The notes under the pieces are model-generated. The model did no database searches. It was not told where the DNA came from and worked only from the letters and a program-made list of their open reading frames with translations. From Symploca sp. SIO1C2 (lineage in GTDB: Bacteria; Cyanobacteriota; Cyanobacteriia; Cyanobacteriales; Coleofasciculaceae), in assembly GCA_010672925.1 (NCBI GenBank), contig JAAHFP010000026.1, forward strand, positions 64,001-92,984: a stretch of DNA of 28,984 nucleotides, in the 5' to 3' direction. Position numbers and translations under genes: made by a program. Positions 4,303 through 26,560 of the stretch are shown piece after piece (position 1 is the first letter of the stretch; every line of letters begins with the position of its first letter).

Positions 4303-4878
4303 ATGATGTCAAAGCCTGTGAGGTCAAAAAGTAGACTAGGCAAGGGAGGGAAATCACCTGTAATATTATTCCTCTTGCTGCTTGTCTGGAGTATTTGCCT
4401 GGGATGGGGAATGTCCTTAGTTGTAGCTGCTAAACCAACAGCAAGCATTGTTCAAGCTACTACAGTCATATCCGGTCCAGTTGACCCAATTCCAGAGCGT
4501 CACCAGCAAGGATATAAACTTTATTTGGAAAACTGCTCTGGTTGCCATATTGCCATACCACCAGAAGTACTACCGACAGATAGTTGGCGTCAGATTCTTC
4601 TAGAAATAGATCAGCACAATGGTAAAAAACTAGAGATTATTGGTCCGATTGTCCAGATTATGTGGAACTACCTGCGGGCTTTTTCTCGTCCTCTAATTAA
4701 ACAAACTGAGGATGAACCTATCCCTGAACTGATTAGAGAATCTCGTTATTTCCAGGCTCTACATCCACGAGTTGACTTACCTAGACGTTTGACTCATGAC
4801 ACCTGTGTCACTTGTCACCCTGGTGTTGCTCAATATGATTATCGTACTTTGACTCCGGAGTGGGAAAATTCCCTTTGA
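4303..4878 (+). CDS. Membrane-anchored diheme c-type cytochrome (DHC-like)
   Basis: The protein has two CxxCH heme-binding motifs (CSGCH and CVTCH) and an N-terminal hydrophobic helix. It starts 7 bp after the MoxR stop, so the two genes are probably co-transcribed. I chose the ATGATG at 4303 rather than the overlapping upstream ORF start at 4258. Confidence 0.6.
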   Translation: MMSKPVRSKSRLGKGGKSPVILFLLLLVWSICLGWGMSLVVAAKPTASIVQATTVISGPVDPIPERHQQGYKLYLENCSGCHIAIPPEVLPTDSWRQILLEIDQHNGKKLEIIGPIVQIMWNYLRAFSRPLIKQTEDEPIPELIRESRYFQALHPRVDLPRRLTHDTCVTCHPGVAQYDYRTLTPEWENSL

Positions 4879-4979
4879 TATCATGTCCGGTTGAATACTT
4901 ATCGTTAAGGCTGATGTGGGGACACGGAGAGGTTTTTCTCGTAAGTGATTAGGCGAACATGATATAGCAACCGCGAAAA

Positions 4980-5007
4980 GTAGAGACGTTGCATGCAACG
5001 TCTCTAC
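4980..5007. terminator. Perfect 28-bp palindrome GTAGAGACGTTGCATGCAACGTCTCTAC between convergent genes
   Basis: The sequence is exactly self-complementary. It lies between the 3' ends of the cytochrome gene (+) and the phosphoesterase gene (-), so it is a candidate bidirectional terminator or stem-loop. Confidence 0.5.
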
Positions 5008-5041
5008 AGGGTAGAAAATAATGGGAATATGTCAAATTTAT

Positions 5042-5791
5042 TTATTCGTCTATTTCCAAAACTAACTTGAGATTCACTACATTTTTCTTCCTTTCCCGAG
5101 GATAGCGCAAGGCGTTTTGAATATATCTGACATTATCAATTAAAGTATCATGATTGATATGACTATGGCCAAAAATATGTATTTTTGAGCCAATTAATTT
5201 TATTTGAGCAGCTAATACTGTACTAACTGATACATCTGGCAATTTTTTGAATTTTAGGTACTTCGGATTTGGTAACAACTTAGCGGTTGGCAGAAAATGG
5301 GAAAATGATATAACAGTATCTTCGTAACTTTTTAAGTACTGTTTATTTAATGAGCCAAAATATTCTGCTAAATCCATCGAAAATAACGGCCATTCACATA
5401 AATAATAATCAGCCCATTCAGGAATAATAGTATTGTTATCTAATGGTATTTTACAATGATACCAAGAAAATAAAGGAATTATCCAATGGGCTTGGAATTT
5501 ATGGGGTTTTGTGATAATACCTCTGCTACTGCACAAATTGATAATTGTATCTAATTTATGCAAAGAACTATAGCGATAATTTCTAGTCCATAATTCATGA
5601 TTTCCAGGAGTATAGAAGACGTATTTAAATTTATTTTGTAGCAAATCGAAGGTTTTGTTAATGATATCTAAATTATCAGAGATATCACCGGCAATAATTA
5701 GAGAATCATGAGGGTAGTTACCAATTTTTTTAATTAAGTTGAAATTATCTATAAAATCTGTATGAATATCTGATATTGCATATAGCTTCAT
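5042..5791 (-). CDS. Calcineurin-like metallophosphoesterase
   Basis: The motifs are ISDIHTD, AGDISDN, GNHE and a C-terminal GHSH. The gene is markedly more AT-rich than its flanks. Confidence 0.8.
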   Translation of the reverse strand: MKLYAISDIHTDFIDNFNLIKKIGNYPHDSLIIAGDISDNLDIINKTFDLLQNKFKYVFYTPGNHELWTRNYRYSSLHKLDTIINLCSSRGIITKPHKFQAHWIIPLFSWYHCKIPLDNNTIIPEWADYYLCEWPLFSMDLAEYFGSLNKQYLKSYEDTVISFSHFLPTAKLLPNPKYLKFKKLPDVSVSTVLAAQIKLIGSKIHIFGHSHINHDTLIDNVRYIQNALRYPRERKKNVVNLKLVLEIDE

Positions 5792-6002
5792 TATTACAAA
5801 AAATGGGAATTACAACTGATTTGCATTGATGGACTTACATCAGTGTACCTTCAAAGCTATCTAGGCAATAGCTCATCTGGCAACAGTAAGTCATAATTGG
5901 CTTTGGAGAGTTTAGGAATGTTTTCACCTAAACTTGTAGCGTTATACTGTGAAACTAACAAAACTAGCACAAGCTTGGGGGTGAGTGCCTTAATACCCAA
6001 CC

Positions 6003-6812
6003 ATGATAGAAACAAGGTTTCAATGGTTGGAGGCAACTGGGATGATGTTTAACTTCATCGGTTTGAGTGCGAGTTTGGGACTCCTTACGCTACTAGTCTT
6101 TGGCTTACTGCAATGGTTACATATTAGTGCCGGTCATTTCTTGGATTGGGTGATTGCTGTCTTGAGTTTTTGGTGGTTGTTGGCGATTGTGACAGTACCT
6201 TGGAATGTCCACTTAGAAGCCAGGGAAGTTTTGACAGAAGCTGCAGCTTCTCGCAACCAAGGGATTGCTGTTGATGCTAAGCAAATCGACTATGTAAGAA
6301 CTTTATCGAAGCGATCGCTAATTGTCGCTATATCTCTGCATCTGTTATCAGCTGCTGGTCTTTACACTTTAGCAGCTACTGGCATCAGTGCCGTTGGTTA
6401 CATCACCTCCGGCGCGGCTTTGCTCCTAACTGCATTGCGTCCAGCCGTAAGATTTTATGAGTATTTAGCAGCTAGACTAGCGATGATTCGGCGAGAATTT
6501 AAGTATCCCCGGGAAGATATCATGGAGTTGCGATCGCGCTTTGACAATTTGGAGAGTACTGTCCAATACTTGAGTCAGCAAATAGATCTGGCAAATTCTG
6601 ACTCTTTGGCAGCTACCCAGCAGCAGTATGCAGAAAAAACTCGTCAAGATTTAGTTAATCTTAAAGCCTCTGTCGAACAACTAGCAGCAAGGAACGAAGC
6701 AGAACATCAGCGCCTTGCTCTTGAAGCTCAACAAGGAATTTCTCAGCTGACTGTAGATAGTCAATTCTTAGAGCATGTCCGCGAAATTATTCGCTTTTTC
6801 AAGGAAACATGA
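6003..6812 (+). CDS. Hypothetical membrane protein with C-terminal coiled coil
   Basis: Three to four N-terminal hydrophobic helices are followed by a Gln/Ala/Glu-rich region with heptad periodicity. There is no recognisable catalytic motif. Confidence 0.55.
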   Translation: MIETRFQWLEATGMMFNFIGLSASLGLLTLLVFGLLQWLHISAGHFLDWVIAVLSFWWLLAIVTVPWNVHLEAREVLTEAAASRNQGIAVDAKQIDYVRTLSKRSLIVAISLHLLSAAGLYTLAATGISAVGYITSGAALLLTALRPAVRFYEYLAARLAMIRREFKYPREDIMELRSRFDNLESTVQYLSQQIDLANSDSLAATQQQYAEKTRQDLVNLKASVEQLAARNEAEHQRLALEAQQGISQLTVDSQFLEHVREIIRFFKET

Positions 6813-9132: not shown

Positions 9133-9200
9133 GGGATTGGGCGTAGCATTTGGATTGATATACTTGGGTATAGGTACTTCAATTATTGCCCAAATGCTAC
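9133..9200. repeat. Inverted-repeat element copy 1: GGGCGTAGCATTTGG - 35 nt - CCAAATGCTACACCC
   Basis: The 15-bp arms are nearly perfectly complementary. Sister copies with the same arms lie at 23193..23260 and 26484..26556. This copy is in the 3' flank of the aminotransferase gene. Confidence 0.8.
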
Positions 9201-9204
9201 ACCC

Positions 9205-10359
9205 CTACAGTTTGCCAAAAGTGATTCTTTTGAGGGAATCAACAACGTGAGTGATTTGAGCTGAGCTTATACCCGGATACATAGGTAGAGACAAAATTTC
9301 CTGGGAAAGAGTTTCGGCGTTGGGAAAGTCCCCCTTTTTATACCCCAAATATCGGTAAGCGGGTTGGAGATGACAGGGAGTGGGATAGTGAATACCGGAT
9401 TGAATCCCTGAGGCGGTAAGTTGATCTTGGATAGTCTGCCTATCTAGAGGACAAGCTGCACTGACTCGAATGACGTAAAGATGATATATGTGACCAGTAG
9501 CACTCTGATTTTGGATAGGGAAAATACCTTGGGATTGTAACGGCTCTAGGAGGGTATCATACTCTTTAGCTGCTGAGTTTCGGGATTGATTCCACTGGTC
9601 TAAATAGGGTAGCTTGACATTGAGAACCGCTGCTTGCAGAGTATCTAAGCGACTGTTAGTACCAACATCGGTGTGTAAATACTTTTTAGGTGCTCCGTAA
9701 TTACGTAGCGATCGCACTTTTTCTGCTACGGTAGCATCCTTGGTAAGTACTATGCCCCCACTACCAAAAGCTCCCAAGTTTTTACTGGGGTAAAAGCTAA
9801 AAGCAGCTGCCTTGCCAATCGAGCCTGCAATATAACCTTCCCTTTGAGCCAAGTGAGCTTGAGCTGCATCTTCAAAAATCAATAAGTCGTGAGCATCAGC
9901 TAATGCCAATAACTGGCTTGGGGAAACCATCTGACCATACAGATGTACTGGTAAAATTGCCTTAGTTTTACCAGTAATCGCTTTTTGAGCAGCTTTGAGG
10001 TCGATGAGGGCAGTATTGGGGTCACAATCCACTAAAATAGGGATTGCACCAGTTTGCATCACACCAATCAGGGTAGCAATAAAGGTATTAGTAGGTAAAA
10101 TTACTTCGTCTCCGACACCAATACCACAGGCTTGTAATCCCAGAGTGATCGCGCTAGTTCCAGAACTCACCCCAATACCGTAGTCTACACCACAAGCCCT
10201 AGCAAATGCAGCTTCAAAATCTGCTACTGCTTTACCTAAGATAAAGTCTCCTTGCTGAACTACTTTTTGGATTGCTTGTTGCAGTTGAGCTTGTATGGGT
10301 TGGTGTTGCAGCTTGAAATCTACAAAGGGAATTGTTGTTTGTTGTTTGTCATTTGTCAT
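9205..10359 (-). CDS. DegT/DnrJ/EryC1/StrS family PLP-dependent sugar aminotransferase
   Basis: The N-terminus carries the FILG-AV-FE-FA family pattern (GDFILGKAVADFEAAFARA) and a SSGTSAI block. The PLP-lysine region is FSFYPSKNLGA. The start codon lies inside an STRR array. Confidence 0.8.
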   Translation of the reverse strand: MTNDKQQTTIPFVDFKLQHQPIQAQLQQAIQKVVQQGDFILGKAVADFEAAFARACGVDYGIGVSSGTSAITLGLQACGIGVGDEVILPTNTFIATLIGVMQTGAIPILVDCDPNTALIDLKAAQKAITGKTKAILPVHLYGQMVSPSQLLALADAHDLLIFEDAAQAHLAQREGYIAGSIGKAAAFSFYPSKNLGAFGSGGIVLTKDATVAEKVRSLRNYGAPKKYLHTDVGTNSRLDTLQAAVLNVKLPYLDQWNQSRNSAAKEYDTLLEPLQSQGIFPIQNQSATGHIYHLYVIRVSAACPLDRQTIQDQLTASGIQSGIHYPTPCHLQPAYRYLGYKKGDFPNAETLSQEILSLPMYPGISSAQITHVVDSLKRITFGKL

Positions 10360-16012: not shown

Positions 16013-16502
16013 CCTGTTCCTTTCGTAAAGAGCGACAATCTTAAAGTTAACTTGTGAGGGTCGTTATTGGTTATTTGTCATTTGTCAATTAGTCTATGCT
16101 ATCCATAAATGGGGATATTCTTCCTCCAGACCACAGCTTCCCCATCAGTGTTCAGTAGAAGTAGCCAGTTTTGCTTCGATTTAGTCACAAATCTTCACAA
16201 AATGAAATACTCCTGATGCCGGAAGCAATCTTCAACACCCCAGAACCCCGACTTCTTCAAAAAGTCGGGGTTCTCAAAAAAACATATGAAATCTTCAATT
16301 TAAACCGTGAAAGTTCTCCTTTGCCCAGTTGCTCCAACTGTTAAAATAGGGAAGAAAAGAAGATGCTTTCGTTGGTTGGATAGAGTGCTAGCTCTACTCA
16401 ACAAAGTAGCTTTAGCTTTGTTGCGCTACTACTAAGATTAAATCTACCTGAATACTCATCATGTTTAGACCAACCCCCCCAACTCCCTTACCGGCAAGGG
16501 AA

Positions 16503-20958: not shown

Positions 20959-21115
20959 AGTCAACCTCAACCTTTGCCTGATTACTAGTTTTATTCTATC
21001 TTATAGCAATAGCGTAACCCAACACTGGAGAGTATTCTGTTGGGTTTCACTTTGGTTACACCCAACCTACATTTTTAGGTGTGTCACGCTACTACTAACA
21101 CCTACCACCTACCAC

Positions 21116-22901: not shown

Positions 22902-23168
22902 ATGGAAACCAAACCCTTAGGCACCTCGGAGGTACACATCACCCCAATTATCATGGGTACTTGGCAAGCAGGTAAATCCATGTGGGTAGGCATTGAAGAT
23001 GCCGAAACGATTAAAGGGTTGCAAGCCGGATTTGAGGCAGGAATCACTACAGTTGATACGGCAGAAGTTTACGGTAAGGGTCACTCAGAAAAAATTGTGG
23101 GTAAGGCTCTAGCAGAGGTACGTGATCAAGTAGTTTTAGATGATAATCCAGTGATGTGGAATTTTTGA
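22902..23168 (+). pseudogene. Truncated aldo/keto reductase (N-terminal about 85 aa only)
   Basis: The N-terminus reads LGTSEVHITPIIMGTWQAG...GITTVDTAEVYGKGHSEKIVGKAL, which is a typical AKR start. The frame stops after 88 codons, whereas the AKR family is about 300 aa. No C-terminal remainder appears in any downstream frame. Confidence 0.65.
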
Positions 23169-23189
23169 GAGGTAGGTCGATTGTTGTCT

Positions 23190-23262
23190 GTAGGGGCGTA
23201 GCATTGGCGCTGGCACATTGCCAAAAAAATCCAAGTTTCTGTCCGCCAATGCTACGCCCTTC
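23190..23262. repeat. Inverted-repeat element copy 2: GGGGCGTAGCATTGGCG - 34 nt - CGCCAATGCTACGCCC
   Basis: The arms are 16/17 complementary and are the same arm sequence family as the elements at 9133..9200 and 26482..26560. It lies directly after the truncated AKR. Confidence 0.8.
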
Positions 23263-23295
23263 CAGGATTTATTCAATAGGTTTAAAACCTACCAC

Positions 23296-26429: not shown

Positions 26430-26481
26430 GTTAGTTGTTAGGCAATGGTGACCAGTTAAGGCAAAAATTCGGAGGGCGAAG

Positions 26482-26560
26482 CATTTGGATACCATAATTT
26501 GGGATTTCACCGATGAATTTTCGCCCAAATGCTTACGCCCTTACACCCAATTCCCCATAC
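26482..26560. repeat. Inverted-repeat element copy 3: GGGCGAAGCATTTGG - about 35 nt - CCCAAATGCTTACGCCC
   Basis: The arms are complementary with one indel. They belong to the same arm family as the elements at 9133..9200 and 23190..23262. The element lies between the convergent 3' ends of ggt and the ACAD-like gene. Confidence 0.8.

Follow-up and report, generated by a model that had tools for sequence, protein, structure and literature searches.

RAYTs are HUH/Tyr enzymes related to the IS200/IS605 transposases, and they act on hairpins in single-stranded DNA. The Escherichia coli enzyme, TnpA_REP, binds its own REP together with the GTAG foot (4ER8), and E. coli REPs can stabilise upstream mRNA or, near a stop codon, affect translation termination. 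To our knowledge, binding and cleavage of a REP on single-stranded DNA by its cognate RAYT are known only for E. coli TnpA_REP (PDB 4ER8). We know of no biochemical study of a subclass 2.4 enzyme and of no direct in vivo demonstration, for any RAYT, of RAYT-driven REP proliferation.

Subclass 2.4 of TnpA_Y1 is characterised by NH[IFV]H, WQ and YIxNNP motifs and a median length of 194 aa, and it equals Bertels' RAYT Group 4 (Quentin et al. 2018, PMC6006769). Host phyla include Cyanobacteria and Bacteroidetes, besides a range of others (Quentin et al. 2018, PMC6006769). The cognate REPs are described as "long": the bottom of the stem consists of three G-C pairs, a GT[AG]G foot lies on the 5′ side, and some have a "double foot" (Quentin et al. 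2018, PMC6006769). A RAYT gene with the same REP in frame inside it and/or flanking it is the signature of the subclass; such in-ORF insertions were reported and regarded as probably neutral (Quentin et al. 2018, PMC6006769). RAYTs of Group 4 have been recorded from 17 classes and are frequent in Cyanobacteria, Chlorobia and Caldilineae (Bertels et al. 2017). Earlier work described GTAG-tagged REPs from Cyanobacteria, Chloroflexi and Planctomycetes, most of them in spacers between unidirectional or convergent ORFs (Di Nocera et al. 2013).

Three hairpins in a 28,984-nucleotide stretch of Symploca sp. SIO1C2 DNA (the window) are assigned here, with a probability of about 0.85, to the long REPs cognate to RAYT/TnpA_REP subclass 2.4 (Bertels' RAYT Group 4). 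The element, the enzyme class and the in-ORF copies are already published, and the finding is correct but ordinary. The closest described element is the Table S1 REP for Anabaena cylindrica AFZ56567.1, GTAGGGGCGAAGCATTGGCTCG...CGCCAATGCTTCGCCC (Quentin et al. 2018, PMC6006769). Like the window hairpins, this PCC 7122 element is a "long" REP of 69 nt with a single GTAG foot, an arm (GTAGGGGCGAAGCATTGGC), a loop of ~35 nt and a second arm (GCCAATGCTTCGCCC). Its arms differ from those of window copy 2 by one compensated A-T to T-A pair. It differs from the window elements in its loop and host, and the window copies are dispersed with no RAYT in view.

More distant systems share parts of this arrangement. 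The REP/BIME elements and RayT of E. coli (4ER8; subclass 2.2/Group 2) have a GTAG foot beside an imperfect hairpin, are extragenic and mostly downstream of genes, and are associated with a single-copy HUH/Tyr enzyme. E. coli REPs measure ~35 nt, have a short loop and are confined to enterobacteria, whereas the family described here measures 65-75 nt, has a ~30-nt loop, reaches at least eight phyla and, unlike REP/BIME, occurs in frame inside the RAYT gene. The REPINs of Pseudomonas fluorescens SBW25 are likewise long hairpins (~70-110 nt), replicated as a unit, non-autonomous and tied to a RAYT (Bertels and Rainey 2011). A REPIN consists of two inverted REPs, each with its own palindrome, whereas the window copies have one foot and arms with only a 4-bp internal palindrome. 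IS200/IS605 elements (TnpA_IS200) share the HUH/Tyr chemistry, the use of subterminal hairpins on single-stranded DNA and the lack of target-site duplication (PMC6006769). IS200/IS605 elements are present in many copies, each with its transposase between two different end hairpins; in the present family the hairpin alone is repeated, apart from the gene for the enzyme. Border repeats of a ParE/ParD-like module by MaOC1 in Microcystis aeruginosa PCC 7806 contain an inverted repeat, GGGCGAAGCATTCGGA, of the window REP family. The published account treats them only as 152-bp direct repeats on either side of a toxin-antitoxin pair and does not recognise them as REPs (Klemencic et al. 2021).

Three hairpins in the window

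The hairpins are listed below with scores from a covariance model that was trained on copies from other genomes, the window copies being left out.

9139..9208 (core 9139-9204), minus strand: predicted REP, copy 1; 50.7 bits, E = 1.6e-11
23190..23259 (core 23194-23259), plus strand: predicted REP, copy 2; 62.5 bits, E = 1.1e-14
26474..26544 (core 26474-26540), minus strand: predicted REP, copy 3; 53.3 bits, E = 3.2e-12

Exactly three sites were returned, at E = 1e-11 to 1e-14, and the rest of the window scored at noise level. The arm consensus, with up to three mismatches, occurs five times in the window against 0.46 expected, and five was reached in 0/100 shuffles. Folding of each copy against its shuffles gave z values of -3.0 to -6.3. 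Inverted-repeat detection picks up copies 1 and 2, the latter with 22-nt arms that are 91% complementary. Covariance model, arm count and folding all agree with the preliminary description of three related inverted-repeat hairpins. Its coordinates were close to the true sites, with one range, 9133..9200, a few bases off the core at 9139-9204.

MAFFT alignment and the covariance model agree that copies 1 and 3 share a strand and that copy 2 runs on the opposite one. Read on the minus strand, copy 1 comprises a GTAG foot (9208-9205; CTAC at 9205-9208 on the plus strand), arm GGGTGTAGCATTTGG, a loop and arm CCAAATGCTACGCCC; the arms at 9139-9204 are GGGCGTAGCATTTGG and CCAAATGCTACACCC. Copy 2, on the plus strand, comprises a GTAG foot (23190-23193), arm GGGCGTAGCATTGGCG, a 34-nt loop and arm CGCCAATGCTACGCCC, and its pairing can be extended to 23188-23265. 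Copy 3, again on the minus strand, has a degenerate GTAA foot (26544-26541; TTAC at 26541-26544 on the plus strand), arm GGGCGTAAGCATTTGG, a loop and arm CCAAATGCTTCGCCC; its arms at 26474-26540 are GGGCGAAGCATTTGG and CCAAATGCTTACGCCC, the right one with a one-base bulge. This copy has the commoner A/T arm form, and copies 1 and 2 have the rarer, compensated U-A form. With its GTAA foot and bulged arm, copy 3 may be inactive. All three stems are 15-22 bp long with a GGG/CCC bottom, and copy 1 has one G-U pair. A second foot is absent from the window copies, each having a foot on one side only; a REPIN identity was ruled out on this ground, and the copies are single long REPs on the reading preferred here. 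HIP1 palindromes (GCGATCGC) in the window mark cyanobacterial DNA.

The loops had been described as unrelated, from a comparison that used the plus strand throughout, though copy 2 has the opposite orientation to copies 1 and 3. When oriented and freed of the inner stem, the three loops still show no significant pairwise likeness. Loops 1 and 3 do have homologues elsewhere: loop 1 is identical to a Caldora copy at 24/34 positions and loop 3 to a copy at locus L107 at 27/34, each above all 200 shuffles. The best match of loop 2 is marginal (0.055). The earlier description is fair within the window and only approximately true in general. Judged by these matches, the loops are diverged homologues rather than unrelated sequence. 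Since homologous loops occur in other genomes, it is the whole element, loop included, that is copied, with the loops drifting afterwards. The small dispersed repeats of Nostoc (Elhai 2008) were considered as a possible source of the variable loops and are unnecessary given the RAYT link.

All three copies are intergenic and lie at the 3′ end or ends of genes, in spacers of 99-173 bp flanked by unrelated genes. Copy 1 sits in the spacer that separates the stop of DegT from the start of the exosortase gene, both genes being on the minus strand (Pfam). The TAG stop codon of DegT (9205-9207) is the TAG of the GTAG foot. The C-terminal residues of DegT after '...RI' are unlike those of the closest orthologue (L129), so the 3′ end of the gene was apparently remodelled by REP insertion. 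Copy 2 lies 20 nt past the stop of a truncated aldo/keto reductase gene, and a convergent ORF stops 30 nt away from it. The reductase ORF (22902-23168) encodes 88 aa covering Pfam profile positions 1-67 of 291, and the remainder of the gene is missing. Copy 3 lies between convergent ggt and acyl-CoA-dehydrogenase-like genes. This Pfam context agrees with the placement first proposed, just 3′ of the stop codons of DegT, of the truncated reductase and its convergent ORF, and of ggt and the acyl-CoA-dehydrogenase-like gene.

DegT and exosortase genes are adjacent, as in the window, in more than 70 of the other cyanobacterial contigs chosen via the exosortase gene. Their orthologous DegT-exosortase spacers are without the REP, including that of the closest relative at 83-84% protein identity, and the covariance model gave no strong match over 400 kb of these contigs. 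Absence from more than 70 orthologous spacers indicates that copy 1 was gained in the lineage of the window. In the closest orthologous spacer (L129), heptamer repeats stand in place of the REP, and the boundaries are too unclean to define an exact insertion.

The same spacer carries other repeats in several of these contigs. Heptamer tandem repeats were seen in L129, L141, L147, L168 and L173. Other GTAG-footed hairpins, for example GTAGGGGCGGGTT...AACCCGCCCC and GGGCGAGAAGACCTCGCCCCTAC, were seen in L180, L202, L203, L152, L150 and L155. The DegT-exosortase spacer accumulates repeats repeatedly.

Further palindromes occur in the window. A perfect 28-bp palindrome at 4980-5007 (GTAGAGACGTTGCA|TGCAACGTCTCTAC) carries GTAG and CTAC at its two ends and resembles a short REP of the double-foot type from another family; the main-family model matches it weakly (16 bits, E = 0.025). 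A GTAG-footed hairpin, GTAGGTTGGGTGTAACCAAAGTGAAACCCAAC, lies on the minus strand at 21040-21071. The REP beside the Nostoc punctiforme RAYT Npun_F5543 is GTTGGGTTTCGTTCCTCAACCCAAC (Bertels and Rainey), and the resemblance of the 21040-21071 hairpin to it indicates that the window has at least two different GTAG-REP families. On the minus strand at 2871-2890, CTGTAGGGACGTCCCAACCG contains a short palindrome (GGACGTCC) after GTAG and may be a third GTAG-tagged type. A near-perfect palindrome at 16242-16274 (AGAACCCCGACTTCTT / AAAAAGTCGGGGTTCT, 1 nt between the arms) is without a GTAG foot and is unrelated to the REP family.

The hairpin family in other genomes

One genome per species was scanned with the exact pattern GGGCGWAGCATT N25-55 AATGCTWCRCCC; the degenerate arm pattern of the family is GTAGGGGCG[AT]AGCATT N25-45 AATGCT[AT]CGCCC. 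At least 119 loci were found, and 134 hairpins were extracted from the matches listed. By record title, these matches belong to Cyanobacteria, Chloroflexota, Candidatus Brocadia, Armatimonadota, Acidimicrobiia, Deltaproteobacteria, Latescibacterota and Calditrichota; the cyanobacterial genera among the matches listed include Microcoleus, Microcystis, Phormidium and Tychonema. The hairpin family is not specific to the genome of the window. A plasmid search gave one match, in Allocoleopsis PCC 7113, and this single match among plasmids is no evidence for plasmids as a vehicle.

Family members are 65-75 nt long and consist of a 5′ GTAG foot, the arm GGGCG(A/T)AGCATT, a covarying inner stem of 3-4 pairs, which brings the stem to ~16 bp, and a ~30-nt loop (consensus GTAG|GGGCGAAGCATT...AATGCTTCGCCC|CTAC). 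The arm is nearly identical over at least eight phyla. Most of the 134 hairpins have GTAG directly 5′ of the arm, CTAC directly 3′, or both, and the CTAC side is conserved at ≥90% in 118 aligned copies from other genomes. Hairpins with a double foot occur in other phyla (Brocadia, Chloroflexota), where they resemble collapsed REP doublets, as in REPINs.

The inner extension of the stem varies by lineage yet stays complementary (CCGGC/GCCGG, TGC/GCA, GGCG/CGCC, GACA/TGTC). Next to the scanned core, on its inner side, lie three pairs on which the search pattern set no constraint; they are 89-92% Watson-Crick with 2-4 pair types each, and show 54, 28 and 41 double changes in the 118-copy alignment. 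The degenerate A/T position of the core is A-U in 113 copies, U-A in 5 and mismatched in 0, though the pattern permitted mismatch. The covariation score was 0.172, against 0.057 for column shuffles (0/500 reach 0.172) and ≤0.063 for slid registers. Covariation of the inner stem indicates that the pairing itself is under selection.

Conserved and covarying stems with variable loops of 30-40 nt would also be seen if the hairpins were structured small RNA genes, or parts of them, with loops that are possibly target-specific. Rfam gave 0 matches at gathering score over the whole window, and at relaxed settings, applied to four loci, the sole matches were generic long-hairpin microRNA models, all below threshold. 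Copies lie in either orientation to their neighbours, and some lie inside ORFs; within RAYT genes the hairpin is translated. No promoter-like site was found at copy 1, and loop homologues in other genomes drift like neutral sequence. A small RNA identity is hardly credible on these grounds. The related suggestion of a structured RNA end, made in the preliminary description, is not supported, given the lack of an Rfam match, the mixed orientations and the copies inside ORFs.

Gene context in other genomes was taken from crude ORF-based models, and copies within one genome are non-independent. In these models, 90 of 104 classifiable copies are intergenic and 14 lie inside ORFs of ≥100 aa. The spacers comprise 57 tandem, 25 convergent and 8 divergent cases, against a background in which convergent and divergent spacers are about equal. 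This preference for convergent over divergent spacers is the 3′-end bias known for REPs. All-against-all clustering of 2280 ORFs from the listed loci gave no protein family common to the hairpin neighbourhoods, so the hairpin is not a cis-element of a particular operon.

Some copies lie within genes other than RAYTs. A LarC-type nickel-insertion gene in L031 (ORF 4810-6330) carries the REP at 5729-5795, as a genuine in-frame insertion. The Pfam match of this LarC spans residues 6-490 for a profile of 375 positions, so the gene appears tolerant of the REP. Further in-ORF copies were seen in a radical-SAM gene (L089), where the REP falls in a linker, and in a WD40 protein (L116), where it falls at the C-terminal end. 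Core-to-core lengths of the dispersed copies (loci L001-L119) are 1 mod 3 in 58 cases, 2 mod 3 in 48 and 0 mod 3 in 26; 1 mod 3 is the length class expected of in-frame copies of the GEAF..NASP type. The excess may reflect descent from in-ORF copies, or merely copy non-independence.

Were the hairpins host RNA elements, that is, terminators or stabilisers of mRNA 3′ ends, their repetition would stem from function and not from mobility. The gene 3′ ends occupied by every window copy, the 25 convergent to 8 divergent spacers, the very stable RNA hairpins predicted for the window copies (-29 to -42 kcal/mol) and the effects of E. coli REPs on mRNA stability and translation termination are all in keeping with such a role. 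A terminator scan at copy 1 was empty, however, and T-runs after the stem (8-13% of copies) are no more frequent than at random positions (9%), so that the terminator family proposed in the preliminary description is not supported. A Rho-independent terminator was rejected on the same lack of U-tract enrichment and on a loop of ~30 nt rather than a short one. Arms near-identical across phyla, a GTAG foot and copies in or beside RAYT genes are unexpected of terminators; relatives do without the REP in their orthologous spacers, and some copies lie in frame within genes, such as LarC in L031. A host RNA element as the primary identity is unlikely, and an RNA role could be a secondary effect of REPs. 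Transcribed hairpins of the window may affect mRNA 3′ ends or translation termination, as at DegT, with its stop codon in the foot.

RAYT genes and spread of the element

A GTAG foot is a hallmark of REPs handled by RAYTs, and all locus ORFs were therefore searched with E. coli RayT. Two matches were found, L017 and L066, and both contain the hairpin. The L017 gene (6463-7023) encodes 187 aa, with the HUH motif MPNHFHG and a catalytic-Tyr region, WQRGYYDRIIRN...RRYIEENP. Its product matches E. coli RayT, PF01797 and NCBIfam REP_Tyr_transpos (E = 4e-19, below the equivalog cut-off). A single-sequence search of the PDB gave no match, and one with a 40-member RAYT family profile gave only 4ER8, E. 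coli TnpA_REP (E = 1e-6). Between its HUH and Tyr motifs the gene contains the hairpin in frame, with cgt agg ggc gaa gca ttc read as RRGEAF and aat gct tcg ccc as NASP. A second hairpin lies 6 nt past the stop codon of the same RAYT gene.

The L017 protein has 5488 relatives at E ≤ 1e-5, many of them carrying PF01797 or the JGI name "REP element-mobilizing transposase RayT". A recognisable variable insert with palindromic ends is present at one site in 108 of the best 120 of the 5488. These 108 inserts are of the classes GEAF..NASP (36), GEAS..DASP-like (47), (V)GAKHS..NASP (19) and short palindromes such as RRGGSRAAPT (6).

At the DNA level, the hairpin was found in or beside RAYT genes, or both, in seven genomes from several phyla (L017, L122, L123, L125, L126, L127 and L128). 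In Egbenema (L122) and in an Armatimonadota MAG (L123), the RAYT gene contains one copy and is preceded by another ~100 nt upstream, the two having near-identical loops. In L126 the arm is in another frame, with GTA GGG GCG AAG CAT TC read as VGAKHS, and an extra copy lies downstream. The L127 RAYT locus has a variant arm, GGGCGAAGCATCTGCC. L128 has a short palindrome within the RAYT gene and a long REP downstream.

Local rearrangements were seen in two of these ORFs. L125 (4300-4420) has tandem partial duplications of the foot region (GATACGTCCCGTAGGGGCGGC, ×3) before the REP. In L126 (3200-3330) a half-copy, and after it a full copy whose arm has a compensated change (GCGATGCATT/AATGCATCGC), come before the in-ORF REP. 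In these two loci the in-ORF RAYT site looks like a hotspot where REP-related events have recurred.

The preliminary description had proposed a REP or RAYT-associated palindrome, and this reading is borne out by the GTAG foot, the GGG/CCC stem bottom, the covariation, the hairpins in or beside RAYT genes elsewhere and the Table S1 entry. No RAYT gene or remnant was found in the 29-kb window. As the same hairpin occurs inside RAYT ORFs, the dispersed copies might be what is left of decayed RAYT genes, surviving as the former in-frame insert and not spread independently. Tblastn with five RAYT proteins found no RAYT-like coding remnants around the window copies nor in 117 of the 119 loci listed, and the window spacers, at only 99-173 bp between intact unrelated genes, also speak against this origin, which is barely plausible.

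Target-site duplications of 2-9 bp were not above chance at four candidate boundaries over 137 copies. This result fits HUH-type transposition and argues against a MITE derived from a DDE element. MITEs, as internally deleted copies of a DDE-type insertion sequence with the arms as terminal inverted repeats, would share with the hairpins their conserved inverted termini, variable interior, length of ~70 bp and dispersed intergenic positions. Besides the duplication result, no locus was found in which the arms bound a transposase gene; the sole associated gene is the HUH/Tyr RAYT with its internal hairpin. Covariation of the inner stem points to selected pairing, which a terminal inverted repeat does not need. 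A MITE origin is very improbable.

For REPs of subclass 2.4, the following mechanism is likely. A single-copy HUH/Tyr transposase, with its gene at another place in the genome, would bind the hairpin and foot where the DNA is single-stranded, as in the lagging-strand template. The transposase would cut and rejoin the DNA beside the hairpin, and elements would thus be copied or maintained with no target-site duplication. Copies would last where they are least harmful, downstream of genes. If the enzyme reads only the foot and stem, these would stay near-invariant while the loops drift. For the genome of the window, we infer that it encodes the cognate RAYT and that this RAYT spread the copies.

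Embedded copies and meaning of the window hairpins

The in-frame REP of subclass 2.4 RAYT genes is possibly a selected feature and not a tolerated accident, a proposal made tentatively and held to be somewhat doubtful. An embedded REP could serve as a master copy, holding enzyme and substrate in physical linkage so that both would move jointly between phyla, and it could possibly regulate RAYT expression. The same arm is translated in two frames (RGEAF and VGAKHS), which indicates that the DNA is conserved and not the peptide. Selection of the embedded REP is consistent with the presence of the insert at one site in 108 of the best 120 relatives, and with the near-identical loops of in-ORF and neighbouring copies in L122 and L123.

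For annotation, the three window sites should be labelled as REPs of RAYT subclass 2.4/Group 4 type, and not as terminators or small-RNA genes. The genome of the window is expected to hold many more REP copies and one RAYT gene. In the window, the REPs mark recent remodelling of gene 3′ ends, with DegT ending in the foot of copy 1 and a truncated aldo/keto reductase abutting copy 2. For the family, the survey adds breadth to a published observation, in its reach across phyla and in the REP inside its own transposase gene, and introduces no new kind of element. A selected master copy, if true, would explain why the 16-nt arm is near-invariant over at least eight phyla, whereas other REP families are lineage-specific.
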